The translations under genes were made by a program, and so were the position numbers. From a virus (Duplodnaviria > Caudoviricetes): DNA of 64,000 nucleotides. The DNA is taken from IMG/VR virus record IMGVR_UViG_3300024344_003081, one strand, 5' to 3'. Positions 37,055-62,962 of this stretch are shown one piece after another. The notes beneath the pieces are model-generated. The model made no database searches. It was not told the DNA's origin and saw nothing but the letters and a program-made list of their open reading frames with translations. Position 1 is the first letter of the stretch, and each line of letters opens with the position of its first letter.

Positions 37055-37299
37055 AAAAATTAACTATTGATACTTTAGTACCAATACATTTTGACTATCT
37101 TGCTAGAGACAAAGATGGAAAAACTTTTGTTTTTCAAAACAAACCTGAACTAACATCTGATGTTGATTGTGATACATGGGATGTAGAAGAGGGAGAAATT
37201 TTACAAATTACTGATTCAATTTCCGTACCAGATGGAGAAATTGATTCTCAATTAGGAAATTGGAAAGAATCGTTAATTGATTTAAGAGATTCATCATGA
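37051..37299 (+). CDS. Hypothetical protein
   Basis: YLARDKDG..FVFQNKP motif of small phage proteins. Confidence 0.5.
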   Translation: MKKLTIDTLVPIHFDYLARDKDGKTFVFQNKPELTSDVDCDTWDVEEGEILQITDSISVPDGEIDSQLGNWKESLIDLRDSS

Positions 37300-37745
37300 A
37301 CAAACTATGGTATAGTTGGGAAGAAATGCGTAACGATTGTAACGTTCTTGTAAGAGATATCGTTCTTGATAATTTCGACCCAGTAGTGATTGTTGGATTA
37401 TCACGAGGAGGATTAACTCCTGGTGTGATGTTATCACATTGGTTCAAAAAACCATTTAAATCTGTGAAATCAGCTTTAAGAGACTTTCCTGAGTGGGAAG
37501 ACTATTTACCAAGACCTACTGATAAGAGAGTTTTGATAGTTGATGATATCTGTGATTCTGGTGAAACCTTTCATAGGATGAAAGAACATATTATTAAAAA
37601 AGCCAATGGAGTAGATGTTCGATTTGCTACTCTTTGGTGGAATAATGAATGTAATTTTGAACCGAAATATTATGTCAGAGAAATTGCTAAAGATTCCACG
37701 AATACCTGGATTAATTTTCCTTGGGAAAAATGGTGGGATGCTTAA
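37296..37745 (+). CDS. Purine phosphoribosyltransferase (Gpt/Hpt-like)
   Basis: IVGLSRGGLTPG, PRPP-binding LIVDDICDSGET, WINFPWE. Confidence 0.9.
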   Translation: MNKLWYSWEEMRNDCNVLVRDIVLDNFDPVVIVGLSRGGLTPGVMLSHWFKKPFKSVKSALRDFPEWEDYLPRPTDKRVLIVDDICDSGETFHRMKEHIIKKANGVDVRFATLWWNNECNFEPKYYVREIAKDSTNTWINFPWEKWWDA

Positions 37746-37836: not shown

Positions 37837-38055
37837 ATGGTAGAAAAAATTCTCGGTTGGGTTAAATCTCTCACCGAAATTGGTCTAGCTTTTATAGCAC
37901 TCGGAGTAGTGCTTCAGATCCTATTCGGAGCCGCAGTTCCATTTCTTGGTTTGGACGTAATTGGTTCTGTATTAGCGGTCGTTAAGGAACTAGGAAGCGA
38001 AGGACTCGTTGGTCTAGTTGCTATATGGGTACTTTGGGGAATATACTCAAAGTAA
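37837..38055 (+). CDS. Small hydrophobic membrane protein
   Basis: 72 aa, almost entirely hydrophobic; SD AAGGAG. Confidence 0.7.
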   Translation: MVEKILGWVKSLTEIGLAFIALGVVLQILFGAAVPFLGLDVIGSVLAVVKELGSEGLVGLVAIWVLWGIYSK

Positions 38056-38065
38056 GTTAATAAAT

Positions 38066-38097
38066 AGCGGTAGATTGGAAGATTTACCGCTTTTTTT
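38066..38097 (+). terminator. Rho-independent terminator
   Basis: AGCGGTAGAT-TGGAAG-ATTTACCGCT stem-loop followed by T run. Confidence 0.75.
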
Positions 38098-38117
38098 GTT
38101 TTCTCGGAAGGAGAAAA

Positions 38118-39203
38118 ATGAATAAGTTAAAAATCCTTGCTGTACTCATTTTGAGTATAGCATTAATTGGTATTGCTAACGCAAAAAAGCAAGTATCAGT
38201 TGGTTATGTTCTAGTGGGACCAAAAAATGATGGCGGATGGTCAATGCGACATCATCAAGGATTTCAATCCTTAACAAAACATGGGTATGAAGTCTCAATG
38301 GTAGAAATGGTACCAGAGTCAGAATCCCAAAAAGTATTCCGTAAACTCGCAAGAAAACACGATATTGTCTTTGCAACTTCATTCGGTTATATGGATGGAA
38401 TGGTGAAAGCCGCAAAGAAAAATCCTGATACAATTTTCATGCATGCCACGGGTTACAAAGGTAACGATACAAATATGGACAACTACGTTTGTCATTCATT
38501 CCAAGCACGATATCTTACAGGAATTGCGGCTGGAATGTTGTCAAAAACAAATAAGATTGGTGTAGTTGGTTCACATCCGATACCTGAAATTATTCGTAAT
38601 ATTAATGCTCTAACTATTGGAGCCCAAACAGTAAATCCAGACATTGAAGTTAATATTGTATGGATTAACTCATGGTTCGATCCACCTAAAGATATGGATG
38701 CGGCTAAAGCACTTCTTGATGATGGAAATGATATTCTCTTTACAACAACAGATTCACCTAGTGTAGTAACTCTTGCACAACAAGCGTGGAAAACTGATGG
38801 TAAAGAAGTATGGAGTATGGGAAATGATGCGCCTATGGGAAGTAACGGACCAGATCGATACATCACGGGTATGATGTTCAACTGGAATGTTCTTTACAAA
38901 CATATAGTAGATCAACTTGCACATGGAAAACTCAAAATGAATCAAAGGTGGAATTGGGGTTTGAAAGAAAATTGTGTAGGACTATCACCATGGGGAGCAA
39001 ATGTTCCTGGCTCTGTTGTTAATAAAGTTGAAACAGTTAAAATGAACTGGATTAATGATGATTTGGATGAATGGTATCCATTCTCTCAAGGAATTACGAA
39101 ACAGGATGGTTCAACAATTCCCGCTGGTACTCTTAAAAGACCAGAATTAGAAACAATGCAATACTTTGTAAAAGGTGTTGTTAATAAATTCCCTACTAAT
39201 TAA
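38118..39203 (+). CDS. BMP/PnrA-family ABC substrate-binding protein (nucleoside/nucleobase type)
   Basis: Signal peptide; VGPKNDGGW, ATSFGY, YLTGIAAG, NALTIGA, WINSWFDP. Confidence 0.92.
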   Translation: MNKLKILAVLILSIALIGIANAKKQVSVGYVLVGPKNDGGWSMRHHQGFQSLTKHGYEVSMVEMVPESESQKVFRKLARKHDIVFATSFGYMDGMVKAAKKNPDTIFMHATGYKGNDTNMDNYVCHSFQARYLTGIAAGMLSKTNKIGVVGSHPIPEIIRNINALTIGAQTVNPDIEVNIVWINSWFDPPKDMDAAKALLDDGNDILFTTTDSPSVVTLAQQAWKTDGKEVWSMGNDAPMGSNGPDRYITGMMFNWNVLYKHIVDQLAHGKLKMNQRWNWGLKENCVGLSPWGANVPGSVVNKVETVKMNWINDDLDEWYPFSQGITKQDGSTIPAGTLKRPELETMQYFVKGVVNKFPTN

Positions 39204-39216
39204 TGGAGAGTAAAAA

Positions 39217-40158
39217 ATGAAAAATATTTTAGCAATTATTGTAGCATTCTTTATGATGATGAGTGTTACTTATGCCAAAGAAAAAGTGACCCTGTTAATG
39301 GATTGGTTTCCACAGGGCAATCAAAGTGGATTCTGGCAGGCTCAATTTGATAATGCACATAATCCAGACCTTGAAATTACAATTAAATCGGGCGGACCAA
39401 AAGTTAGAACTACTACTGCAGTAGCATCTGGTCAAGTAGAATTTGGTCTTAATGGATCAGATAGTGTAATGATGGCTAATGCAAAAGGTGCAGGACTTAA
39501 AGCTATTTTCGTTAGTCTTGGTCATGTTCCATACACGTTAGTTTATCATCCAAATACTGGTGTAAATAGTGTTCAAGATTTAGATGGTAGACCCTTTGCA
39601 GTTGTGATGGGTATTACATATTGGAAATGGGTAAAACATACTTATAATTTAAATAAAGTAAAAGAATTTCCATTGACTGGTGATCTTGGATTGTTTGCAA
39701 GAACTCCACAACAATTTCAACAAGGATATTCTCTTTTCTTACCAGCAAGACTGGATGCTAAGGGAGTTGATAATGAGCAAATTACAGTTGAGTCTTTGGG
39801 TTATAGACCATATAGTGTTTTGTTCACAAGCGATAAGTTGATCAAAGAAAATCGTGCATTAGTGCAGAAAGTTGTTGATCGTCTTAGTATTTCTTTTCAC
39901 AAGTCTTTAGTTGATCCAAAACCAACTAGAGATTTTATTCTTTCAAAGAGTAAAAAAGTAAATGCTGAAATTCATAACAATGCTCTTGAACTTATGAAGG
40001 CAGATTTTCTTCCCGATGATTGGAGCAAGATTGGATGTCAAGATCCTCAACGATGGGTTGAATTAGCAAGTCAATTGAAAGAAGTTAACGTATTACCTGC
40101 GGATTTCGATCCACATTCGTCATATGATACTTCATTTAAAAAGGGATGTTTTAATTAA
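39217..40158 (+). CDS. NMT1/THI5 (ThiY/SsuA-like) ABC substrate-binding protein
   Basis: Signal peptide; LLMDWFPQGNQSGFWQA, SGGP, VASGQVEFG. Confidence 0.88.
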   Translation: MKNILAIIVAFFMMMSVTYAKEKVTLLMDWFPQGNQSGFWQAQFDNAHNPDLEITIKSGGPKVRTTTAVASGQVEFGLNGSDSVMMANAKGAGLKAIFVSLGHVPYTLVYHPNTGVNSVQDLDGRPFAVVMGITYWKWVKHTYNLNKVKEFPLTGDLGLFARTPQQFQQGYSLFLPARLDAKGVDNEQITVESLGYRPYSVLFTSDKLIKENRALVQKVVDRLSISFHKSLVDPKPTRDFILSKSKKVNAEIHNNALELMKADFLPDDWSKIGCQDPQRWVELASQLKEVNVLPADFDPHSSYDTSFKKGCFN

Positions 40159-40171
40159 TTGAGAGTTTATT

Positions 40172-40876
40172 ATGATTGACATTTCAGGTGTTACTAAACA
40201 TTTTGATGATGTCCATGCATTAGCAGAAATAAATTTAGACATTAGCACAGGAGAGTTTGTTTCTATAGTTGGACCCTCTGGTTGCGGAAAGTCTACCTTA
40301 TTAAGAATTATTGCGGGTTTAGTTTCTACTCATGGAAGAGTATTAAAACCTGATAAAGGTGCTTTTGTGTTCCAAGATTCTGCATTACTTCCATGGAGGA
40401 ATGTGCAGAAAAACATAGAACTTTTAATGGAATTAGAACTTATCCCTAAAGCAGAACGAGTCGAAAAGGCTCGTTCTGCCCTCTCTCAAGTCGGACTAAC
40501 TGGATTTGAAAAAAATTATCCTCATCAATTATCTGGTGGCATGAAAATGAGATTGTCTCTAGCAAGATCATTAGTATTAAACCCTGATTATCTTCTTATG
40601 GATGAACCATTATCTGCGGTAGATGAATTAACCCGTGAAGTTTTACAAGAAGAGATATATGCATTATGGAAAAAAGATAAATTTACTGCTATACTTGTGA
40701 CACATAATGTTCCAGAAGCAGTTTATCTTTCTAATAGAGTAGTTATTATGTCTCCAAGACCTGGAAGTATTACACATATTGTTGATGTTCCTTTTAAGAA
40801 CAGAAATCAAAAATTGAGATCATCAAATAAATATCATAAACTTATTAATAATATTTCTGGAAAATTAAGATCATGA
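40172..40876 (+). CDS. ABC transporter ATPase (TauB/SsuB-like)
   Basis: GPSGCGKST, VFQDSALLPWR, LSGGM, LLMDEP, VTH. Confidence 0.97.
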   Translation: MIDISGVTKHFDDVHALAEINLDISTGEFVSIVGPSGCGKSTLLRIIAGLVSTHGRVLKPDKGAFVFQDSALLPWRNVQKNIELLMELELIPKAERVEKARSALSQVGLTGFEKNYPHQLSGGMKMRLSLARSLVLNPDYLLMDEPLSAVDELTREVLQEEIYALWKKDKFTAILVTHNVPEAVYLSNRVVIMSPRPGSITHIVDVPFKNRNQKLRSSNKYHKLINNISGKLRS

Positions 40877-41634
40877 AAAATATAATTCCACCAATTCTAG
40901 TCTTAATAATATTTCTATTTGTGTGGACACTAGCGGCCCATCTTTATAATATGTCTTTTCTTTTACCAAATCCCCTAGAAGTTTTACAAGCATTTATAAC
41001 AGATTTTGATATGGTTATCGGTGGACTTTGGATTACTTTTCAAGAAGCATTATATGGTTATCTTTTAGCAATCGGTATTGGTATTACTTCTGCGGCAATT
41101 ATGAGTCAATCAAAAATATTAGAACGCAGTTTCTATCCCTATGCAATATTATTACAAACACTTCCTGCAGTTGCAGTAGCTCCATTGATTGTTCTTTGGT
41201 TTGGATTTGAAATGAGATCAGTTGTTATTATAAGTTTAATTATTTCATTATTTCCAATCATTAATAATACTTTGTTAGGATTAAAATCAACATCTATTAG
41301 TTTAGTTGAACTTTTTCAAATGCATAATCAATCACGTTTTGTTAATTTTTTCAAACTTCGTTTACCAGCCGCTACTCCTAATGTTATTGCAGGATTGAGA
41401 ATATCAGCAGGATTATCTGTTATCGGTGCAATCGTAGGAGAGTTTATTATTGGCTCTGGAAGTGAAGGTGGCGGATTAGGTGTAATGATAATGTATGCAC
41501 AAGCAGATTTAGCAACTGCATTAGTAATAGCACTTATTTTTACTGCTACTGGTTTGGGGTTTGCTTTCTTTATGACAGTATCAACATTGGGACACTATCT
41601 TTTACATAACTGGCACGAATCAGAGTTAGCATGA
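40873..41634 (+). CDS. ABC transporter permease (TauC/SsuC-like)
   Basis: About 6 TM; QTLPAVAVAPL, LRLPAA, AIVGEF. Confidence 0.93.
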   Translation: MKNIIPPILVLIIFLFVWTLAAHLYNMSFLLPNPLEVLQAFITDFDMVIGGLWITFQEALYGYLLAIGIGITSAAIMSQSKILERSFYPYAILLQTLPAVAVAPLIVLWFGFEMRSVVIISLIISLFPIINNTLLGLKSTSISLVELFQMHNQSRFVNFFKLRLPAATPNVIAGLRISAGLSVIGAIVGEFIIGSGSEGGGLGVMIMYAQADLATALVIALIFTATGLGFAFFMTVSTLGHYLLHNWHESELA

Positions 41635-42686
41635 AATCAACAATAGAACGCAGAAAAACGGGATTAATTTATTGGGATATGGATTGGTCTTCTGGATGTT
41701 ATACTTTGTATGCACCACAAACTGGTAATGGTTTAGTAAAATTAATTGCTATTGATGGCGATACTGTTCACGAATGGAAACTTCCAGTAAGACCCGGTCG
41801 AGATGCAGTAATACTAGATTATGTACAAGGTCGTAAATCTGGAAATCTTGGTTACAATGGTAGTCATGCAAAGTCAGCAAATCTTTATCCATCATGGGAT
41901 ATTTGGCATGGTGGACATTTCATGGAAGTTGCACCAAACGGAGATATTGTATGGGAACATGAAGATATCTATCATCACCATGATGCTCAATGGTTGCCAA
42001 ATGGAAATTTAATCTATACAGTTGCGGCTGAATGGAATGGTAAACAATCAGATATTGTAAAAGAAGTAAATCCAAAAGGTGAAGTAGTTTGGGAATGGAG
42101 AGCATGGGAACATCTTACTAGAAAAGAGTGGTCTATACATGAATGTTTTAATGATGATCATTGGCCAATGATTAATGGTGTTTATCAAGATGGGTTTCTA
42201 CTTTATTTGAGTTTACGAACAACATCGGGTATTATTGCAGTAAATAAAAATACAAAAGAAGTAATTTGGGAATTGAAGTATCCTTTTGTAGCACAACAGC
42301 ATGATCCATCAATAACAGAACAGGGAAATTTATTGTGTTTTGATAATGGAAATATTCGTCCTAGTTCAATTCATCATTCTCGTATTGTAGAGTATGATAC
42401 AGTATCAAAAGAACTTGTATGGGAATATAAAGACCCGATGCCTTCTGCATTTTTTTCTCCGTATATGGGAAGTGTTCAAAAACTTTGGAATGGAAGTTAT
42501 TCTATTTGTGAAAGTGCATTTGGAAGAATATTCGAAGTAACTTCAGAAGGCGAATTAATGTGGGAATATGTTATACCAGAATTCGCAGAATACCCCTCAC
42601 CACTAAATAACTATATAACAGGATCACATAATAGTTGTTTTAAAGCACATCGTTACGAATCAAATACGATAACGAATATTCTCTAG
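41631..42686 (+). CDS. Arylsulfotransferase (ASST)-like beta-propeller
   Basis: HHDA..LPNGN, EVNPKGEVVWEW, HIN-like PMINGV, QQHDP, FDNG, SRIVEYD repeats. Confidence 0.8.
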   Translation: MKSTIERRKTGLIYWDMDWSSGCYTLYAPQTGNGLVKLIAIDGDTVHEWKLPVRPGRDAVILDYVQGRKSGNLGYNGSHAKSANLYPSWDIWHGGHFMEVAPNGDIVWEHEDIYHHHDAQWLPNGNLIYTVAAEWNGKQSDIVKEVNPKGEVVWEWRAWEHLTRKEWSIHECFNDDHWPMINGVYQDGFLLYLSLRTTSGIIAVNKNTKEVIWELKYPFVAQQHDPSITEQGNLLCFDNGNIRPSSIHHSRIVEYDTVSKELVWEYKDPMPSAFFSPYMGSVQKLWNGSYSICESAFGRIFEVTSEGELMWEYVIPEFAEYPSPLNNYITGSHNSCFKAHRYESNTITNIL

Positions 42687-42701: not shown

Positions 42702-43979
42702 ATGATCGGATTCAAAAAGAATCGATGGGACAATATAACACGTCCTTATACAGAAGAAGATGTAGACCGGTTAGGGGGGTCTCTCAAAATAGAATATACT
42801 CTAGCAAAAACAGGAGCAGATAAATTATGGAACAGACTACATTCTAAAAATCGAAATTATGTAAATGCATTAGGAGCATTAACAGGAAATCAAGCATTGC
42901 AACAAGCAAAAGCAGGATTAAAATCTGTTTATCTCAGTGGTTGGCAAGTAGCAGGAGATGCAAATGATAGTTTAGAAATGTATCCAGATCAATCACTATA
43001 TGCAACAAGTAGTGTACCCACAGTAATTAAAAAAATCAATAATACATTTATTCGTGCAGATCAAATTCAAACAATGGAAGGAACAGGAGATATAGATTAT
43101 TTTCTTCCTATTGTTGCTGATATGGAATCGGGATTTGGTGGAGTACTTAATACACATGAATTAATGAAAGACATGATTGAAGCAGGTGCCGCAGGTGTAC
43201 ATTTAGAAGATCAATTATCTTCTGCTAAAAAATGTGGACATATGGGAGGAAAAGTTTTAGTACCTACTCGGGAAATGATTTCTAAACTTATTTCAGCAAG
43301 ATTTGCGGCAGACATAATGGGCGTTGATACAGTAATAATTGCAAGAACAGATTCATTAGCAGGAGCATTATTGTCTTCTGATTCTGATCCTTATGATCAT
43401 AAATTTATTGAAAAAAAACAGTGGAACCACATGCTTCCACCGAAAGAAGATAGAACTGAAGAAGGTCTTTTTAGAGTAAAAGCAGGAATGGAACAAGCAG
43501 TTTCTAGAGGACTTGCATATGCACCATATTGTGATTTAATTTGGATGGAAACATCTTTACCAGACCTGGGAGAATGTAAAGAATTTATACAAGAGATTCG
43601 TAAAGAGTTTCCTGAAAAAATGTTTGCATATAATTGTTCTCCATCATTTAATTGGAAAGCAAAATTAAATGATACAGAAATACGTGATTTTCAAGATAAT
43701 TTGGGTGAATTGGGATGTAAATATCAGTTTATAACTCTTGCTGGTTTTCATAGTTTAAATTATAGTATGTTTGATTTAGCAAGAAAATATAAAAAAACAG
43801 GAATGACTGGATTTGTAGACTTACAACAAAAAGAATTTGAAGCACAGGATAAGGGTTTTACTGCAGTAAAGCATCAACGTGAAGTTGGGGCGGGTTATTT
43901 TGATGCAGTTGGGCAAATTTGTACAAATAGCAATACTTTGAGTGCAGTTGAAGGATCAACTGAACAAGAGCAATTTTAG
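42702..43979 (+). CDS. aceA: Isocitrate lyase
   Basis: [49 protein letters not shown]. Confidence 0.97.
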
Positions 43980-43989
43980 AAGGAGTAAA

Positions 43990-45072
43990 ATGAAAAGTGG
44001 AGATGTGGCAACAGGTGTAGATGTATCAAAAGAAACAAGTGTTGGAAATGAAGATGTTGGCGCAAGTGCAGAAGCCCATGCAGAAGCAGGTGTAGAAGTA
44101 ACCGATTCTAGTGTAAGTGCAGAAGCAGAAGTTGGCGCAAGTGCAGAAGCACATGCAGGTACTACAGTAGGTGGAGTTGATTTAGAAGCAGAGGCATCAG
44201 TAGAAGCAGAAGCACATGCAACGGCAGGTGCAGAAATTACAGATACAGATGTGAGTGCAGGAGCAGAAGTTGGTGCAAGTGTAGAAGCCAGTGTGGAAGC
44301 AAGTGCAGGATCAGATACTACAATAGGTGATACAGGTATTGATGTAGGAGCAGAAACTTCAGTAGGAGCAACTGCAGAAGCACATGTAGGAGCAGAAGCA
44401 GAAGCAACTGCTGGACTTCATGGAGTAGAAGGACATGCAGGAGCAGAAGTTGGTGCAAGTGTTGGTGTAGAATCAGAATCATCTGTTCAAGTTGGTGCGG
44501 CAGAAGCAACTGGAAGTGCAGGAGTAAGTATTGGAGTGCAAGCTGGTGCAGAAGTCGGTGGAGGCGCAACTTTTGATGAGGGAACGATTAGTATGGGAGT
44601 TGATGGACATATTGCGTTACTTGCTGGTGTGGATCTTGATTTAGAAGTAGATATTGATACTAAAGAAGCATTGAGAGAAGCAAAAGATGCGGCCCAAGAA
44701 GCACAAAAACTGGCGGATGAAGCAAAAAAAGCGGCTTTAGCACATGATAAAGAAGTTGCTGAAGCAAAAAGATTAGCAGAAGAACATGCTAAAGAAGTAG
44801 CAAAAGCCGCTCAAGAGAAAATTCTGAAAGATAAAGAATACGCCGAAGAGAAGGCACGAAAAGCAAAAGCAGAAGCAGAAGAAAAAGCTAGACAAGCGGC
44901 GGAAAAAGCTAGACAAGCAAAAGAGGCCGCAGAAAGAGCGGCCGCAAAGAAAGCTGAAGAAGCTAAAAAAGCCGCGGAGAATACGGCTAAAAAGGCGAAA
45001 AAGACAACAAAGAAAACAACAAAAAAAATAACAAAAGCATTTAGTACGAAAAAGAAAAAGAAGAAAAAATGA
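43990..45072 (+). CDS. Low-complexity protein: Ala/Gly/Glu/Val beta-repeat N-half plus Ala/Lys/Glu coiled-coil C-half
   Basis: Repeated (G)AEVGAS(A/V)EA(H)AG units, TolA/histone-H1-like tail, poly-K end; ATG 43990 after AGGAG. Confidence 0.7.
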   Translation: MKSGDVATGVDVSKETSVGNEDVGASAEAHAEAGVEVTDSSVSAEAEVGASAEAHAGTTVGGVDLEAEASVEAEAHATAGAEITDTDVSAGAEVGASVEASVEASAGSDTTIGDTGIDVGAETSVGATAEAHVGAEAEATAGLHGVEGHAGAEVGASVGVESESSVQVGAAEATGSAGVSIGVQAGAEVGGGATFDEGTISMGVDGHIALLAGVDLDLEVDIDTKEALREAKDAAQEAQKLADEAKKAALAHDKEVAEAKRLAEEHAKEVAKAAQEKILKDKEYAEEKARKAKAEAEEKARQAAEKARQAKEAAERAAAKKAEEAKKAAENTAKKAKKTTKKTTKKITKAFSTKKKKKKK

Positions 45073-46343: not shown

Positions 46344-46856
46344 ATGATAATAGATTTTAATAAAAGTATTAGTGAACAATGGAAAGATCAAACTACAACA
46401 ACATCACATACAGCCGCTACGGCTGATGAAAAAGTTTTAGCAACATCAACTTTTAATACAGAAATACCATCAACAGTAATTGACATTTATAATTTTCCTA
46501 GAAAATCAAAGTCTATTGTTGCAACAAGTAAAAACAAAGAAAAGTTAATTGAATTATTTGATCTCATTGAATCAAAAAATGAAACGACATTGAAATTTAA
46601 TGAGTCAGAAGATTTATTTGTTTCTGAAGAATTTAAACATTTTAAAGAAGTTCAATTTGATATTTTTCCTCTAACAATGGATGTGAATAAGCTATTTACA
46701 GATTTTAAACAACTGTTACAGTTAAAAAATATGACTATTATTTGTAAATTTAGTCCAGAAATAGCTTGCCATGAAGTGCTAGATATGTTAAAATATGTGT
46801 TAGTATTAAAAAATAAGAATTATCCTGGAATTGTAATAATTAAAGATGAGATATGA
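46344..46856 (+). CDS. Hypothetical protein
   Basis: 170-aa ORF coupled to guaC (ATGA overlap). Confidence 0.5.
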   Translation: MIIDFNKSISEQWKDQTTTTSHTAATADEKVLATSTFNTEIPSTVIDIYNFPRKSKSIVATSKNKEKLIELFDLIESKNETTLKFNESEDLFVSEEFKHFKEVQFDIFPLTMDVNKLFTDFKQLLQLKNMTIICKFSPEIACHEVLDMLKYVLVLKNKNYPGIVIIKDEI

Positions 46857-47836
46857 GAATACAAGATGATATAAAACTTGATTTTGATGATGTTTTAATC
46901 AAGCCTAAAAGATCCACCCTAGTTTCACGTAAAAAAGCAAATCTAGAAAGAACATTTAAGTTCAAACATTCACACCATCGATGGACAGGAATTCCTATAA
47001 TTGCATCCAATATGGATCATACGGGAACTATTGCTATGGCTCATGTTCTTATGGAATTTCCCATGCTTACAGCATTGTGTAAATTTGTTGAGTCTACAGA
47101 ATGGGGATGGAATAAAAATATAATAAGAACAATCGGTCTAGATCAAAATTTAGATGAATTAACTGATGATTCAATGTGGATTTGTCTTGATGTAGCAAAT
47201 GGATATACAGAACGTTTTAATGATTATGTTGCATTAATGAGAAGACATGCCGCAACTAAAGATAGAATAATTATAGCAGGAAATGTATGTACACCAGAAG
47301 CAACAGAACAAATACTTTTAGCAGGAGCCGATATCGTAAAAATAGGAATAGGTCCTGGATCGGTGTGTACAACTCGCAAAATGACAGGCGTTGGATATCC
47401 ACAATTAAGTGCTACAATGGAATGTGGAGATGCGGCCCATGGTCTAGGAGGACACATAATTACAGACGGAGGATGCACAGTTGTAGGAGATATTGCAAAA
47501 AGTTTTGGAGGTGGTGCAGATTTTGTAATGCTTGGTGGTATGTTAGCAGGGCACAAAGAATGCGAAGGAGAAATAGAAGATGACAAAATGATATTTTATG
47601 GAATGTCTTCAACTGAAGCACAAATAAAACATCATGGTGGAAAAAAATCTCATAGAGCATCAGAAGGAAAAGCAGTTATGATAGATTACAGAGGTAATGT
47701 AGCAGATACAGTACAAGAAATCTTAGGAGGATTACGAAGTTCATGTACATATGCTGGTGCAAAATCAATTAAAGACTTGCCCAAATGTACTACATTTGTT
47801 AAGGTTAATCGACAGTTAAATACGGTATTTAATTGA
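46853..47836 (+). CDS. guaC: GMP reductase
   Basis: LDFDDVLIKPKRSTL, CLDVANGY, KIGIGPGSVCTTR, FYGMSS, RASEGK, GGLRSSCTY. Confidence 0.95.
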   Translation: MRIQDDIKLDFDDVLIKPKRSTLVSRKKANLERTFKFKHSHHRWTGIPIIASNMDHTGTIAMAHVLMEFPMLTALCKFVESTEWGWNKNIIRTIGLDQNLDELTDDSMWICLDVANGYTERFNDYVALMRRHAATKDRIIIAGNVCTPEATEQILLAGADIVKIGIGPGSVCTTRKMTGVGYPQLSATMECGDAAHGLGGHIITDGGCTVVGDIAKSFGGGADFVMLGGMLAGHKECEGEIEDDKMIFYGMSSTEAQIKHHGGKKSHRASEGKAVMIDYRGNVADTVQEILGGLRSSCTYAGAKSIKDLPKCTTFVKVNRQLNTVFN

Positions 47837-47950: not shown

Positions 47951-48916
47951 GTGGATTTAGTAACATTGTATACTATAGTTGGATTTTCTCTAGCGAGTTA
48001 TTCAGTTATAGCTAATGATTCAGTCCAGACCCTTGGTACATGGATGGCATCAAATCAAGCACGGTTCAAGTGGTATTACATGTGGGCCGCCGCTAGTTTT
48101 GTTTTGCTATTCACAATTTGGTATGGTTGGTCTATCAACGCAGGTGATATATCGTATGGCAGATTAAACAAAATCCCATACATCCCCATAGAATGGTATC
48201 ATGCCATAGCACCACTCATTCTTGTAGCCCTCACAAGATTCGGTGTTCCCGTCAGCACAACATTTTTAGTTCTATCTGCATTTGCTAGTACAGTAGTTCT
48301 AGAAAAGGTTCTTACCAAATCAGCATTAGGATATATTGTTGCCGCTTCGGCCGCTTATCTCATATGGTTGCTTGTTGCAAGGTTTTGGGAGTCAAAGAAA
48401 GATATTCCAGAGTCGCATGACAAGTATTGGAGAGTGGCACAATGGTGTACAACAGGTTGGTTATGGTTCACTTGGTTGTCGCATGACATGGCAAACATAG
48501 CAGTATATCTACCTAGACAAGTTCCTGTTAATGTAATGATTATCATTAGCATTATATTTGTCGCAGGTCTAGGTTATATGTTCCATGAGAAAGGTGGTAG
48601 AATACAAGAAGTTGTATTGAGTAAGACAAACACAAAATATGTCAGGTCTGCAACATTAGTTGACTTGATTTATAGTTTGATATTGTGGTACTTCAAAGGA
48701 TATAATGATATTCCAATGAGTACAACTTGGGTGTTTGTTGGTTTGCTTGCAGGTAGAGAACTTGCATTTGCAACGATAACTGGTGAGCATACATTTAAAA
48801 CTGTTTTTCCATTGATAGGAAAAGATTTCTTCAAGATGATTATAGGTCTTTCTTTGTCAGTTGTCATTGTACTATTAATTCATGGATTTGCATTCGATGG
48901 TTTGAAAACCAATTGA
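47951..48916 (+). CDS. PiT/Pho4-like phosphate transporter
   Basis: Multi-TM; IANDSVQTLGT and LSHDMANIAV resemble the two PiT signature repeats; GVPVSTT and IPMSTT motifs. Confidence 0.65.
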   Translation: MDLVTLYTIVGFSLASYSVIANDSVQTLGTWMASNQARFKWYYMWAAASFVLLFTIWYGWSINAGDISYGRLNKIPYIPIEWYHAIAPLILVALTRFGVPVSTTFLVLSAFASTVVLEKVLTKSALGYIVAASAAYLIWLLVARFWESKKDIPESHDKYWRVAQWCTTGWLWFTWLSHDMANIAVYLPRQVPVNVMIIISIIFVAGLGYMFHEKGGRIQEVVLSKTNTKYVRSATLVDLIYSLILWYFKGYNDIPMSTTWVFVGLLAGRELAFATITGEHTFKTVFPLIGKDFFKMIIGLSLSVVIVLLIHGFAFDGLKTN

Positions 48917-52378: not shown

Positions 52379-52665
52379 AAATAAACAAAACTATAAACAG
52401 ACATTGGAGAGACTGGGCGGGATTAGTATATCTGTTCATTTGTCTAATTGATTTTTTTGTAGCTCCTTTAATATGGAATATACGAATGGAAGAATACTGT
52501 TTGGCACATGATTGTGCGGCAGAAGGTGTGACTAGATGGCAACCTCTTACACTAGGGGCTGGAGCAATGTTTCACTTATCATTCGGAGCCATACTAGGTG
52601 CAACTGCTTGGAAGAAGAAAGAAGAATTGGAAACTCATAATAATAGGTCTGATATTATTTCTTAG
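52375..52665 (+). CDS. Holin-like protein (3TM GTA-holin-like)
   Basis: WRDWAGLVYLFICLIDF..P, WQPLTL, FHLSFGAILG..AW. Confidence 0.6.
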   Translation: MKINKTINRHWRDWAGLVYLFICLIDFFVAPLIWNIRMEEYCLAHDCAAEGVTRWQPLTLGAGAMFHLSFGAILGATAWKKKEELETHNNRSDIIS

Positions 52666-53479
52666 CGGATGTACATTCACCAATTATTTTTTATGGGATG
52701 AAGGTAAATCAGGAGATAGAACTACTTTACCAGTATCCTTAGATGTTCTCATTGAAATGGGTGAATATTCTAAACTCATTTATACAAACAAAGGAATATT
52801 TGCAGACGGATTTAATGGGGTTTCTCCCGAAGATCCAGAATTCTATGGTCTAAATAGGATGATTGCAAATCAATATCGTGTTAAACAAGATCAATTTTCT
52901 TATTATGTAATACAAGAAGATGGAATAACTATTCTTATTTTTAGAGGAACAGCAAATGCTAAGAATGTATTAACTGATATTGATGTAAGAACATTTAATG
53001 ATAGTAGATTAGATGCAAAGCTCCATAGAGGATTTAGAGATGCGGCAGAAGCCATATATGTTGATATTATAAAAACGTATGAATTAGATCATACAATATA
53101 TTTAACGGGCCATTCATTAGGCGGTGCAATTGCACAAATCATGGGAATGTGGTTACATCAGAGAGGATACAATGTTCAAATATTCACTTTCGGAAGTCCA
53201 AAAGTCAGTACTACATTTACTTTTAACGAACCCAATCATTGGAGGATGGTTGATAGGAGCGATCCTGTGCATTTTCTTCCTCCTTATCCTTACGTTCATT
53301 CAGGAGTGGTAATAGATATTAATACATTAGAATGGAGTGAAAATCATGAAGAGGGCGATATTTTACAAACAGATGGCTTGGATCATTCTATTAAAGATTA
53401 TCTTGACATATTATACAATCATTCAGACTGTGATGCACAATGTAGAGGTTCGCAAGAAATACGGGAGCCGAATGATTAA
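52598..53479 (+). CDS. Class 3 lipase, probable lipoprotein (start uncertain)
   Basis: Lipobox LSGC; IFRGT, LHRGF, LTGHSLGG, FTFGSP, DPVHFLP. Confidence 0.88.
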   Translation: MQLLGRRKKNWKLIIIGLILFLSGCTFTNYFLWDEGKSGDRTTLPVSLDVLIEMGEYSKLIYTNKGIFADGFNGVSPEDPEFYGLNRMIANQYRVKQDQFSYYVIQEDGITILIFRGTANAKNVLTDIDVRTFNDSRLDAKLHRGFRDAAEAIYVDIIKTYELDHTIYLTGHSLGGAIAQIMGMWLHQRGYNVQIFTFGSPKVSTTFTFNEPNHWRMVDRSDPVHFLPPYPYVHSGVVIDINTLEWSENHEEGDILQTDGLDHSIKDYLDILYNHSDCDAQCRGSQEIREPND

Positions 53480-55074: not shown

Positions 55075-55542
55075 ATGCAAATAGGAAGAAAACTTTTGAA
55101 ATGGTGGTTAATATTTTGTTTAATCCTTCTAGGAATTGGAATATCTTATCATTTTAACTTGCATTCACTATTATATTATGCAGATGTTACTAAACTTAGT
55201 TTTATCATTATTACTATTTTTATATTTACTTCGGTTTGGATAGGAAGAAAAACATTTGATTTAGAAAAAACCTCTGTTACAGATGATAATATTAATGTTG
55301 GGTGGTTTATTGCTGAAACTTGTTTAGCATTAGGAATGGTTGGAACTGTAACTGGTTTTTTATACATGTTAGGAACCGCATTTGAAAATATAGATATTAC
55401 TGATGCTACAACATTACAAGATGCTCTTGCCTCAATGGCTAAAGGAATGTCTACTGCCTTGTATACAACCCTAACGGGATTAATCGCTTCTTTAATTATT
55501 AAAGTACAGTTGGTGAATTATGAAGTGGAAGAATCGGTATAA
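55075..55542 (+). CDS. MotA/TolQ/ExbB proton-channel family protein
   Basis: LALGMVGTVTGF, MAKGMSTALYTTLTGL. Confidence 0.85.
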   Translation: MQIGRKLLKWWLIFCLILLGIGISYHFNLHSLLYYADVTKLSFIIITIFIFTSVWIGRKTFDLEKTSVTDDNINVGWFIAETCLALGMVGTVTGFLYMLGTAFENIDITDATTLQDALASMAKGMSTALYTTLTGLIASLIIKVQLVNYEVEESV

Positions 55543-57281: not shown

Positions 57282-58262
57282 ATGTTTAGATTTTTTACAA
57301 ACAAAGAATGGTGGTTATGGTCTTGGCTTGGTTCAATAATCATTTTAGGATCGCTTTGGGTTCAAGTAAAGATTGATGTAAAAATAAATGAATGGTTTGG
57401 TGTCTTTTATGACATGATACAAAAAGCACTTGCCACACCAAATGCAATTACAATAGGAGAATATTTCGACAGTTTATTCTCATTTATTACACTAGCAGGA
57501 ATGTATGTCGGGCTTTATGTTATAATCAGTTATTTTACTGCTCACTATTTGTTTAGATGGCGTACTGCAATGGTTGACTGGTATCATAGTGTATATGAGA
57601 AAGCCAGAACAATAGAAGGTGCATCGCAAAGGGTTCAAGAAGATACAATTAAATTTACCCGTATAATGGAAAGTTTAGGAACATCTTTAATTGAATCCGT
57701 TATGGTTTTAGTTCAGTTTGTTCCTATATTATTTGGATTGTCAATGGGCATTCCAATATTCTTTTTTGGTGATTGGGAATATGGATTGATTACAGGTGCG
57801 TTACTTTGGACATTAGGCGGTACTGCATTTTTAATTGGATTAGGATGGATATTGCGTTTAGTTGGTATAGAATATGACATACAAGCAAAAGAAGCGGCAT
57901 ATAGAAAAATACTTGTTATTGCAGAAGATGATGGAACTGTTAGACCAAAGAAAATCGAGGAATTCTTTGATGATGTACGTAAGATTCACTTTTTAAGTTA
58001 TTTACGTTATCTGTATTTTAATATTGGTCGAATGGCGTACTTACAGGCAAATGTATTATCAGCTTATGTATTTCTAGCACCAGCAATAGTTGCAGGAGTG
58101 ATGACTCTAGGTGTAATGCAACAAATAATAAGAGCCTTTGGTAGAGTAGAAGGATCGATGCAATATCTATTAAAAGCATGGCCTACTATTATTGAATTAA
58201 TGAGTGTTTTTAGGCGTTTAAGAGAATTTGAAGCTAAGTTAATAGAAAACGAAAAGTTATGA
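57282..58262 (+). CDS. sbmA: SbmA/BacA-family peptide transporter
   Basis: VKINEWFGVFYDMIQKAL, HYLFRWRTAM, IEGASQRVQEDT, EAAYRKILV, FGRVEGSMQYL. Confidence 0.9.
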   Translation: MFRFFTNKEWWLWSWLGSIIILGSLWVQVKIDVKINEWFGVFYDMIQKALATPNAITIGEYFDSLFSFITLAGMYVGLYVIISYFTAHYLFRWRTAMVDWYHSVYEKARTIEGASQRVQEDTIKFTRIMESLGTSLIESVMVLVQFVPILFGLSMGIPIFFFGDWEYGLITGALLWTLGGTAFLIGLGWILRLVGIEYDIQAKEAAYRKILVIAEDDGTVRPKKIEEFFDDVRKIHFLSYLRYLYFNIGRMAYLQANVLSAYVFLAPAIVAGVMTLGVMQQIIRAFGRVEGSMQYLLKAWPTIIELMSVFRRLREFEAKLIENEKL

Positions 58263-62025: not shown

Positions 62026-62043
62026 AAAAGGAAATTGGAAAAT

Positions 62044-62889
62044 ATGACTACATTAATTTCACCCCAAGATTTCACCAACGCCACAAATCAACTCAGAACT
62101 TTCTTTAATGACCTCGGATTTCTTGAAGTCCATACGCAAAATCGTCTTTCGATTCTTGCCGCTTGTGAAGATCCAACTACAGTTTCCACTTACGATTATG
62201 CAGGAAATATTTGGCCTCTTCCTCAGACTGGTCAAATGTGGCTGGAATACGAATTACTACAAAATCCCGATTTAAAAGGCGTATACTGTGTATCAACATC
62301 GTATCGACAAGAACAAAATCCAGTAGCAGGAAGACATGATTTGATCTTTCCAATGTTTGAATTTGAAGCACCAGGTACATTTGATGATTTAATAGAGATG
62401 GAAGAAAACTTAGTTTGTCATCTTGGATTCAGACCATGTGTATATCCTATTAAAAGATATACTGAATGGCAAGAAGAATTCAATACAACTGAAGAATTAA
62501 ATCACGAACACGAACAAATGATTTCAGATTCACATACCAACATTCAACAAGCAGGTGTGGGTTTTATTACACATTTTCCCTATACTACATCACCCTTTTG
62601 GAATATGAAGAAAGAAGGAGAATTTGCTAACAAATGTGATGTTATTATAGATGGAATGGAAACTATTGGATCTGCAGAAAGATCCGCTGATACAGTAGAA
62701 ATGAGAGAACAATTTCATACAATATCAGATGGAGAATATGCTAGTTTATTGTACGAATTATTTGGAAAAGAGAGAGTAGAAAAAGAATTAGAGGAATTTT
62801 TAAGTTATGATTTCTTTCCTAGATATGGAGGAGGAATCGGAGTAACAAGACTTATTAGTGCTTTGAAAAATTGTGGAGTGGCGAAATAG
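62044..62889 (+). CDS. Class II aaRS catalytic-domain-only paralog (AsnRS-like / archaeal-type asparagine synthetase family)
   Basis: Motif 1 LRTFF...GFLEV, LPQTGQMWLE, motif 2 SYRQE...RHDLIFPMFEFE, ETIGSAER, motif 3 PRYGGGIGVTRL; no N-terminal OB anticodon domain. Confidence 0.85.
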   Translation: MTTLISPQDFTNATNQLRTFFNDLGFLEVHTQNRLSILAACEDPTTVSTYDYAGNIWPLPQTGQMWLEYELLQNPDLKGVYCVSTSYRQEQNPVAGRHDLIFPMFEFEAPGTFDDLIEMEENLVCHLGFRPCVYPIKRYTEWQEEFNTTEELNHEHEQMISDSHTNIQQAGVGFITHFPYTTSPFWNMKKEGEFANKCDVIIDGMETIGSAERSADTVEMREQFHTISDGEYASLLYELFGKERVEKELEEFLSYDFFPRYGGGIGVTRLISALKNCGVAK

Positions 62890-62962
62890 GTAAACGCAAC
62901 CAGTTGTTTACTGGTCGAGTCGGGGCAGACTTTTGAAGGTTCGAATCCTTCCTCCACAGCCA
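62872..62962 (+). tRNA. Non-canonical tRNA, anticodon GTT (Asn), with long variable arm
   Basis: Acceptor TGTGGAG/CTCCACA + G + CCA; D arm GCG..CGC; anticodon arm ACCAG-TTGTTTA-CTGGT; 19-nt variable region with GAGTC/GACTT stem; T arm GAAGG-TTCGAAT-CCTTC. Confidence 0.85.

Follow-up and report, generated by a model that had tools for sequence, protein, structure and literature searches.

Do two periplasmic binding proteins whose genes lie side by side in a phage genome serve one importer, or are they parts of two uptake systems? The question is raised by a locus in the IMG/VR virus record IMGVR_UViG_3300024344_003081, a stretch of 64 kb that was analysed at its full length and is called the window here. 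Four genes follow one another on its + strand: those for a Bmp/PnrA-family periplasmic binding protein of the AtzT/3S99 subclade (38118-39203; Pfam Bmp, E 7e-47), an NMT1/ThiY-like periplasmic binding protein (39217-40158; Pfam NMT1, E 2e-17), an ATP-binding cassette (ABC) ATPase of the NitT/TauT type (40172-40876; Pfam ABC_tran, E 9e-28), and a BPD_transp_1 permease that is encoded by a single gene and presumed to be a homodimer (40873-41634; Pfam BPD_transp_1, E 5e-24). An earlier reading made from the sequence alone (the sequence-only reading) had taken them for one importer with two binding proteins. We think it probable instead that two independent uptake modules lie side by side, and that the second is a cassette in which an importer is coupled to an arylsulfotransferase (ASST)-type enzyme. 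This enzyme, a putative cytoplasmic beta-propeller, is encoded by the fourth cassette gene, which comes next on the + strand (41631-42686; Pfam Arylsulfotrans, E 3e-22).

Bmp and the NMT1 cassette occur independently in related phages

Bmp was found in 79 IMG/VR loci. Among the 43 of these that have at least 5 kb of downstream sequence only 7 carry the NMT1 cassette and 36 do not, and Bmp is also present without the cassette in loci L038-L041. Conversely, the cassette is present without Bmp in L005, L009, and L019-L021. In L012 about 1.7 kb, holding a gene for a 377-aa protein and a second phosphoribosyltransferase (PRT) gene, lie between Bmp and NMT1. The close relatives that lack the importer share a backbone of ThyX, ribonucleotide reductase (RNR), Fe-S genes, bS21, PRT, a small transmembrane protein, and Bmp, and after Bmp they have adenosine deaminase, a 2-oxoglutarate (2OG) oxygenase, a 377-aa protein, adenine PRT, isocitrate lyase (ICL), and GMP reductase. 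In this island of the relatives adenosine deaminase scores 440 bits (cut-off 419) and adenine PRT 217 bits (cut-off 143). L039 (10096-13785) and L016 (13442-16644) hold genes for adenosine deaminase, adenine PRT, phosphoribosyl pyrophosphate (PRPP) synthetase, orotidine monophosphate (OMP) decarboxylase, and a DIOX_N 2OG oxygenase, all of which are missing from the window. In the runs examined the depth in the middle of Bmp is about 10x that of the neighbouring sequence, which fits the presence of many relatives that have only Bmp.

A single importer with two binding proteins, for nucleobases, nucleosides or thiamine-pyrimidine precursors, would account for four contiguous, closely spaced genes on the same strand, for the predicted signal peptides by which both binding proteins would be secreted, and for the pairing of a purine-type Bmp with a protein that is ThiY-like in fold. 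It does not account for the independent occurrence of Bmp and NMT1 in the relatives or for the 1.7 kb that separate them in L012, and no Bmp gene was found within the fetched loci of the bacterial cassettes described below. In addition, Bmp-family receptors normally dock on BPD_transp_2 permeases, not on BPD_transp_1 permeases, and these are their partners in the known systems of the family. The co-occurrence data thus disfavor one importer served by both proteins, and we regard it as improbable. The unit of four genes does recur in many viral contigs, but the cassette accompanies Bmp only in the minority of loci given above. Bmp and NMT1 thus belong to separate modules that lie side by side in a variable nucleotide-salvage island.

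The genes are intact and belong to the phage

The open reading frames (ORFs) and the Pfam families agree with the earlier assignment of four intact genes, Bmp, NMT1, ABC ATPase, and permease. The span that was proposed for the system, 38118-41634, is exact for these four but omits the conserved ASST-like gene at 41631-42686. Translational coupling, which had been assumed for the whole unit, holds for the ATPase and permease genes, which overlap by ATGA, whereas 13-nt gaps with Shine-Dalgarno-like sites separate Bmp from NMT1 and NMT1 from the ATPase gene. The ASST-like gene overlaps the stop codon of the permease gene in the same way, by ATGA, and these two junctions are the only ones with such an overlap.

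The window is coding on the + strand throughout and has a GC content of about 32%. It encodes a gp43-like polymerase, UvsX, gp41-like and gp61-like proteins, and a class II RNR, and the flanks of the locus are thus phage-type as had been stated; a permuted tmRNA is also encoded. From this T4-type set of replication genes and the tmRNA we conclude that the source is part of an uncultured marine T4-like myophage. Its relatives are T4-like, with IMG/VR contigs of 134 and 167 kb among them. The polymerase is about 52% identical to those of cyanomyophages and the RNR is nearest to the RNRs of Rhizobium and Puniceispirillum phages. When the region and both binding proteins were searched by BLAST against GenBank phages, only fragments of 20-31% identity were returned, a search in which near-identical records were possibly masked.

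An importer would also appear in a phage sequence if bacterial transporter genes had been wrongly joined to a phage contig, be it by chimeric assembly or by host contamination, and a 97%-identical contig of 28 kb that is binned in a Chloroflexota metagenome-assembled genome (MAG) could be taken to favor this. That contig has the same phage genes throughout, and its GC content is 33%, whereas two other loci of the MAG have 38-41%. IMG/VR contig 3300020462_001097 and GenBank contig PAAV01000031.1 have the same gene order with the same flanks at 97-99% identity, and copies at 70-90% amino acid identity are found in more than 15 further, independent viral contigs (JGI, ENA), one of them on an 83-kb contig where the block lies between ThyX/RNR and other phage genes. 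The stretch is present in at least 14 DNA runs, and in 20 datasets in all, which belong to 10 named studies. In a DNA run of another study, contigs span the PRT/Bmp, NMT1/ATPase, and ASST/ICL junctions. The GC content at third codon positions (GC3) is 0.17-0.25 for the genes of the locus, equal to that of the phage core genes (0.17-0.20), while it reaches 0.88 in the bacterial cassette genes, for which only ORFs with GC3 above 0.72 were retained. Pairwise dN/dS among the phage copies is 0.08-0.16 for every gene. All genes of the locus are under purifying selection and have the codon composition of the phage, and for practical purposes a chimera is refuted. The continuity of the assembly, on which the sequence-only reading depended, is therefore not in doubt. 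The binned 28-kb contig is PAAV01000031.1 itself (L024; contig C40 of G001), and the MAG, 'Chloroflexota bacterium NAT137', is a species representative; given its phage content and its GC content of 0.33 versus 0.38-0.41, the contig is probably misbinned.

The Bmp module and purine salvage

Bmp has an N-terminal signal peptide that looks cleavable and has no lipobox cysteine. It is similar over its full length to PDB entry 3S99 (E 5e-63) and to AtzT (6PI5; E 6e-59). Its residues W41, W186, the Ser-Phe motif, and E157 align with Tyr45, Trp194, Ser97-Phe98, and Glu165 of AtzT. The position of AtzT Asn220 is Asp in the phage protein, as in the adenine-bound 3S99, and that of Asn218 is Thr. For AtzT, binding has been measured at 110 nM with guanine and 2.5 µM with adenine, and in 3S99 adenine has been modelled in the binding site (PMC6834077). 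As judged from these alignments, the phage Bmp belongs to the AtzT/3S99 subclade and is predicted to be a purine-base receptor.

The genes around Bmp are in keeping with such a ligand. A PRT gene that is weakly xanthine/hypoxanthine-guanine PRT-like lies upstream (37296-37745, + strand; Pfam Pribosyltran, E 3e-18; NCBIfam xanthine PRT 43 bits, below the cut-off), and a PRT is found upstream of Bmp in 46 of the 57 IMG/VR loci with at least 1.5 kb of upstream flank. It is followed on the same strand by a gene for a 72-aa protein with two transmembrane helices predicted by hydropathy (37837-38055). This small protein is conserved at 82-100% in many loci, often between PRT and Bmp, is 100% identical in the nearest relative, and may act with Bmp. 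Directly 5' of Bmp, at 38066-38101 (+ strand), a terminator-like hairpin with an 11-bp stem and a T-run is a candidate unit boundary. Downstream, the window encodes GMP reductase for purine interconversion (46853-47836, + strand; NCBIfam 464 bits versus a cut-off of 397), which is also found near PRT-Bmp in many relatives. The sequence-only reading, which had named nucleosides and nucleobases among the ligands of both binding-protein families, is thus upheld for Bmp, which is of the purine-binding kind, with the ligand residues kept and PRT and GMP reductase close by. Bmp and PRT have dN/dS values of 0.08 and 0.10, respectively. The best cellular homologues of Bmp are only 36-42% identical, with none above 42% in 401 sampled alphaproteobacterial genomes, and therefore the gene appears to be an old resident of the phage lineage.

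No multi-transmembrane ORF of the BPD_transp_2 type was found in the 64-kb window, where the other membrane proteins are SbmA/BacA-like, MotA/ExbB-like, or have no Pfam match (47951-48916). A predicted complex of two copies of the permease with mature Bmp scored 0.05, which is no evidence either way. We propose that PRT, the small membrane protein, and Bmp belong together as a unit. Bmp would be secreted to the host periplasm, bind a free purine base there, and pass it to a Bmp-type (CUT2) permease of the host, a handover that we infer because the window has no BPD_transp_2-type permease; the phage PRT and GMP reductase would then channel the imported base into nucleotide pools. A lone phosphate-binding protein, PstS, is known from phages, where it presumably connects to the ABC permease of the host (PMC12379486). 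By analogy, the phage Bmp would work as a lone receptor that uses a host permease.

An importer linked to an ASST-like enzyme

The NMT1 protein also has an N-terminal, cleavable-looking signal peptide and no lipobox cysteine, and it scores 64 bits against Pfam NMT1 (cut-off 20.5). In Foldseek searches its structure model (pLDDT 94) is nearest to the thiamin-bound 4NMY, to ThiY (3IX1) with formylaminopyrimidine, and to Thi5, at TM-scores of 0.74-0.78; TauA and SsuA are lower at 0.64-0.70. An N-terminal 'DWFPQ' motif resembles 4NMY and ThiY 3IX1. Identity to the solved members compared is 13-20%, and 16-20% to the nearest.

In the ATPase, the Walker A motif GPSGCGKS was found by pattern, and reading of the sequence gave LSGGM as the signature, LLMDE as Walker B, and VTHN as the H-loop. 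The permease scores 85 bits in Pfam and has about six transmembrane segments; its EAA loop, E146..LRLP, is recognizable but degenerate, with Asn at the expected Gly, and the strict pattern is unmatched. The best NCBIfam matches of the ATPase are SaoA, TauB, NrtD, and SsuB, and those of the permease are SaoP/SsuC/NrtB/TauC-like. All equivalog tests failed far below the cut-off, for example 215 versus 360 for SaoA and 37.5 versus 163.5 for SsuA_fam. By these profile scores the ATPase and permease are of the NitT/TauT type and not orthologues of any characterised system (TauABC, SsuABC, NrtBCD, SaoAP). A complete binding-protein-dependent importer with binding protein, ATPase, permease, and intact motifs is present, as claimed before.

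The product of the fourth cassette gene matches Pfam PF05935 with 79.7 bits (cut-off 24.2). No signal peptide was found in the phage or the bacterial members of the family, whereas AssT of E. coli is periplasmic; polar residues come after the conserved RR at the N terminus, which in the model is folded into the propeller. This model (pLDDT 86) finds the Streptomyces sulfotransferase Cpz4 first (9KF4/9KF6; Foldseek E 1e-15) and then AssT (1e-11 to 1e-12), with TM-scores of 0.60-0.68 to both. When the family is aligned with AssT by profile, H224 and R196, both invariant, take the positions of His436 and Arg374, and His436 is the residue changed in the H436N mutant entries 4P04/4P05. The family thus retains the catalytic His and Arg. 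The constant pairing of an importer with a transferase that has a histidine nucleophile points to an enzyme that acts on the imported solute. According to our proposal, the NMT1 protein would make up a self-sufficient importer of the NitT/TauT type together with the ATPase and the permease, each presumed to be a dimer, and a translationally coupled, cytoplasmic enzyme of the ASST type, independent of 3'-phosphoadenosine 5'-phosphosulfate (PAPS), would act on the solute via the histidine nucleophile.

The ASST-like gene stands out in one comparison. Against the nearest relative (L004, 10415-11470) it is 89% identical with a dN of 0.065, while the flanking genes are 98-99.8% identical, which suggests recombination or faster change confined to this gene.

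The cassette in bacteria and its origin

Bacterial relatives of the cassette were sought in one genome per prokaryotic species, and they came from soil Alphaproteobacteria, Oxalobacteraceae, and Eremiobacterota and not from marine bacteria. Together with 1 metagenome contig, 12 genome contigs gave 13 loci. The ASST-like gene is together with those for the binding protein, ATPase, and permease in 11 of the 13, and the other 2 end at a contig edge. The bacterial and phage copies share 40-48% identity in the binding protein, 53-62% in the ATPase, 57-64% in the permease, and 47-52% in the ASST-like protein. The flanks were annotated for a subset of the loci. A divergent regulator upstream is of the LacI type in 6 annotated loci and of the LysR type in 1 (Janthinobacterium). 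The gene after the permease gene codes for a 2OG oxygenase in 7 of 8 annotated loci (DIOX_N in 5, TauD type in 2) and for an integrase in Janthinobacterium. A DIOX_N oxygenase gene also follows the ASST-like gene in several phage relatives.

By maximum likelihood, the phage binding proteins group in a single long-stemmed clade (100/100), which is nested within the clade of the cassette (100/100). This placement indicates a single, old acquisition of the cassette by the phage lineage. The four genes would have entered it once, from an operon with a regulator next to genes for an ASST-like protein, binding protein, ATPase, permease, and 2OG oxygenase. The gene contexts of the more distant NMT1 relatives P0131, P0133, and P0137 were uninformative.

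Transcription and regulatory signals

Metatranscriptome contigs from three studies cover the genes for PRT, the small transmembrane protein, Bmp, and NMT1, and the 5' part of the ATPase gene, which suggests that the region from PRT to the ATPase gene is transcribed. The permease, ASST-like, and ICL genes had next to no contigs in the RNA runs examined, from which no conclusion on their expression is drawn. Neither sigma-70-like promoters nor T4 late-promoter motifs occur above chance in the region, and the same is true of the number of sites with a terminator-like hairpin and a T-run. No purine or thiamine pyrophosphate (TPP) riboswitch was found; for TPP the search covered the window and the bacterial loci L026, L027, and L032.

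What the cassette may import

The solute of the cassette, and with it the phage's gain, we infer from the enzyme, the transporter, and the bacterial partners. An aromatic or heteroaromatic sulfate ester is favored, if only tentatively, because the enzyme has the fold and the active-site residues of an ASST, a TauD-type oxygenase is the alternative partner, the transporter is of the NitT/TauT family, and the binding protein is closest in fold to binders of heteroaromatic rings. In its most specific form, which we consider rather unlikely, the proposal is that the importer brings in an aryl or heteroaryl sulfate and that the PAPS-independent sulfotransferase either frees the ring compound or sulfates a cellular or viral target in a host without PAPS synthesis. 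If this is the case, such an import-and-transfer device would add a class to the known auxiliary metabolic functions and would show what an uncharacterised bacterial operon does.

The same TauD-type partner in two bacterial loci, the LysR regulator in Janthinobacterium, the transporter family, and the ASST-like enzyme would also suit a cassette that scavenges sulfur from sulfonates or sulfate esters in the manner of SsuABC, TauABC, or AtsRBC. Most of the bacterial loci, however, have LacI-type and not CysB/Cbl-type regulators, and the fold of the NMT1 protein is nearer to binders of heteroaromatic compounds than to SsuA or TauA. Since sulfate abounds in sea water, there would be little point in plain sulfur scavenging there, and we think it improbable.

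The nearest folds of the NMT1 protein bind thiamin or formylaminopyrimidine, and this brings in two other kinds of solute. One is a non-sulfated, nucleobase-like heterocycle such as a pyrimidine, orotate, or a hydantoin-like compound, with the ASST-like propeller doing other chemistry. A 31%-identical relative in a hydantoinase/amidohydrolase cluster would agree with this, as would an island rich in nucleotide genes (PRTs and GMP reductase, with PRPP synthetase and OMP decarboxylase in relatives) and the origin of the nearest solved ASST-type structure, Cpz4, in the caprazamycin pathway, where we take its acceptor to be a nucleoside antibiotic. Against it, the ASST-like family has the catalytic His and Arg of aryl sulfotransferases without exception, the TauD-type oxygenase of two bacterial loci belongs to a family of sulfonate and sulfate-ester dioxygenases, and neither a purine nor a TPP riboswitch was found in the search described above. 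We consider a solute of this kind rather unlikely. The other is a thiamine precursor. SAR11-type cells need hydroxymethylpyrimidine (HMP), and a ThiXYZ-like system for HMP or formylaminopyrimidine (FAMP) would supply vitamin B1 precursors to an auxotrophic host. The top Foldseek matches, 4NMY and ThiY 3IX1, and the 'DWFPQ' motif shared with them give this idea, which the sequence-only reading had entertained, support at the level of the fold. The identity is only 16-20%, thiamine-salvage enzymes are not among the conserved partners, which are the ASST-like enzyme, a 2OG oxygenase, and a regulator of the LacI type, and no TPP riboswitch was found in the window or in the three bacterial loci. 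Uptake of thiamine precursors is thus very improbable. Whatever weight is left beyond the sulfate esters and the non-sulfated rings falls on other solutes.

Several points weigh against a cassette for sulfate esters or against the scheme of two modules as a whole. Since the nearest solved binding proteins are only 16-20% identical, their specificity is not transferable to the NMT1 protein, and the ligand assignments across the cassette clade are predictions. His356 of AssT aligns with a hydrophobic residue in the ASST-like family, with an invariant H177 three positions upstream, and His252 is not aligned; an invariant HHHD motif (115-118), likewise not aligned, may stand in for His252. A role in sulfate-ester uptake has no obvious benefit in sulfate-rich sea water, and SAR11-type cells cannot reduce sulfate, so that the benefit would be least for such a host. 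For the Bmp module, the host permease that would serve it is putative, and the low identity of the best cellular Bmp homologues (36-42%) counts on the same side. Lastly, the RNA contigs do not prove transcription, since libraries of this kind may contain DNA. We nevertheless retain two modules, one of them an importer coupled to an ASST-type enzyme, as the probable arrangement.

Other features of the island and the window

The gene for ICL (42702-43979, + strand; NCBIfam 673.7 bits versus a cut-off of 562) is in the same variable island, outside the transporter. Its position varies among related phages, where it is found before Bmp, before NMT1, or after PRT2, and no malate synthase gene was found among the ORFs scanned. 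It is followed by a gene for a 376-aa protein without a Pfam match (43942-45072). In the 97%-identical relative most of it has been lost or exchanged, and nothing there matches 44023-44960. A DNA contig jumps over 44208-45049 as well, and 43942-45072 is thus a hot spot of structural variation.

Farther downstream, a full-length inner-membrane transporter of the SbmA/BacA family (57282-58262; Pfam E 3e-132) is a further phage-borne transport protein and is 92% identical to a copy in the viral contig L019. A 155-aa protein with four predicted transmembrane segments (55075-55542) matches the MotA/TolQ/ExbB proton channels (E 5e-9) and is also present in the relatives L019 and L020. A protein with a class 3 lipase domain is encoded at 52598-53479. 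A truncated class II tRNA-synthetase-like protein, EpmA/GenX-like in size, is encoded at 62035-62889, and a tRNA gene (62872-62959) overlaps the end of its gene.

Significance and comparison with known systems

In a 2018 survey of viral transport genes (PMC6163359), giant viruses and entomopoxviruses were the only ones for which ABC transporters were listed. Complete ABC systems with binding protein, ATPase, and permease have been described in huge phages, next to PspA (bioRxiv 10.64898/2026.10.24.761521), and hitherto complete systems in phages had been noted only there, while lone binding proteins such as PstS were already known in marine phages. A survey of pelagimyophages does not mention Bmp or the cassette genes, and in the literature we found no report on a phage ASST, on this cassette, or on a phage Bmp receptor. 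In an abundant group of marine T4-like phages, a predicted purine-base receptor is widespread and has purine-salvage enzymes as partners, and it would tie phage replication to the purine cross-feeding that was lately reported among ocean bacteria (PMC11698098). In the cassette, a whole importer would be functionally joined to a sulfotransferase-like enzyme. The cassette is uncharacterised in soil bacteria as well, and bacteria that carry it, for example Janthinobacterium sp. CG3 and Terripilifer ovatus, are cultivable systems in which its substrate could be sought.

The phage Bmp shares with AtzT and 3S99 full-length similarity, the aromatic sandwich (W41, W186), the Ser-Phe motif, and Glu157. 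It differs in that Asn218 is replaced by Thr, and the base preference is therefore not transferable, and in that it is phage-encoded, has no cognate permease or ATPase nearby, and has a plain signal peptide without a lipobox. Like PstS of cyanophages and pelagimyophages it is a lone periplasmic binding protein in marine T4-like phages, but its ligand class is purine and not phosphate and its partners are salvage enzymes and not the pho regulon.

The cassette resembles the NitT/TauT importers (TauABC, SsuABC, and ThiXYZ with ThiY; TC 3.A.1.16/17) in having one binding protein of the NMT1/SsuA fold, one BPD_transp_1 gene, and one ATPase gene. Unlike them, it is below every equivalog cut-off, its binding protein is only 13-20% identical to the solved members, and it is phage-encoded and always linked to an ASST-like enzyme; we know of no characterised NitT/TauT importer with such a partner. 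With AssT (3ELQ) and Cpz4 (9KF4) the phage enzyme has in common the beta-propeller (TM-scores 0.63-0.68) and the invariant His and Arg at the positions of AssT His436 and Arg374, and Cpz4 is signal-less as well. With 351 aa it is shorter than AssT (571) and Cpz4 (472), its identity is 12-13% to AssT chains and 20-21% to Cpz4, and AssT His356 is without a matching His. The PspA-linked ABC systems, finally, resemble the cassette in that a phage encodes binding protein, ATPase, and permease, but they are of another transporter type and belong to a membrane-stress module with a wall-tethered receptor, for which no ASST partner has been described, and they sit in huge phages, whereas the relatives of the phage studied here are T4-like.

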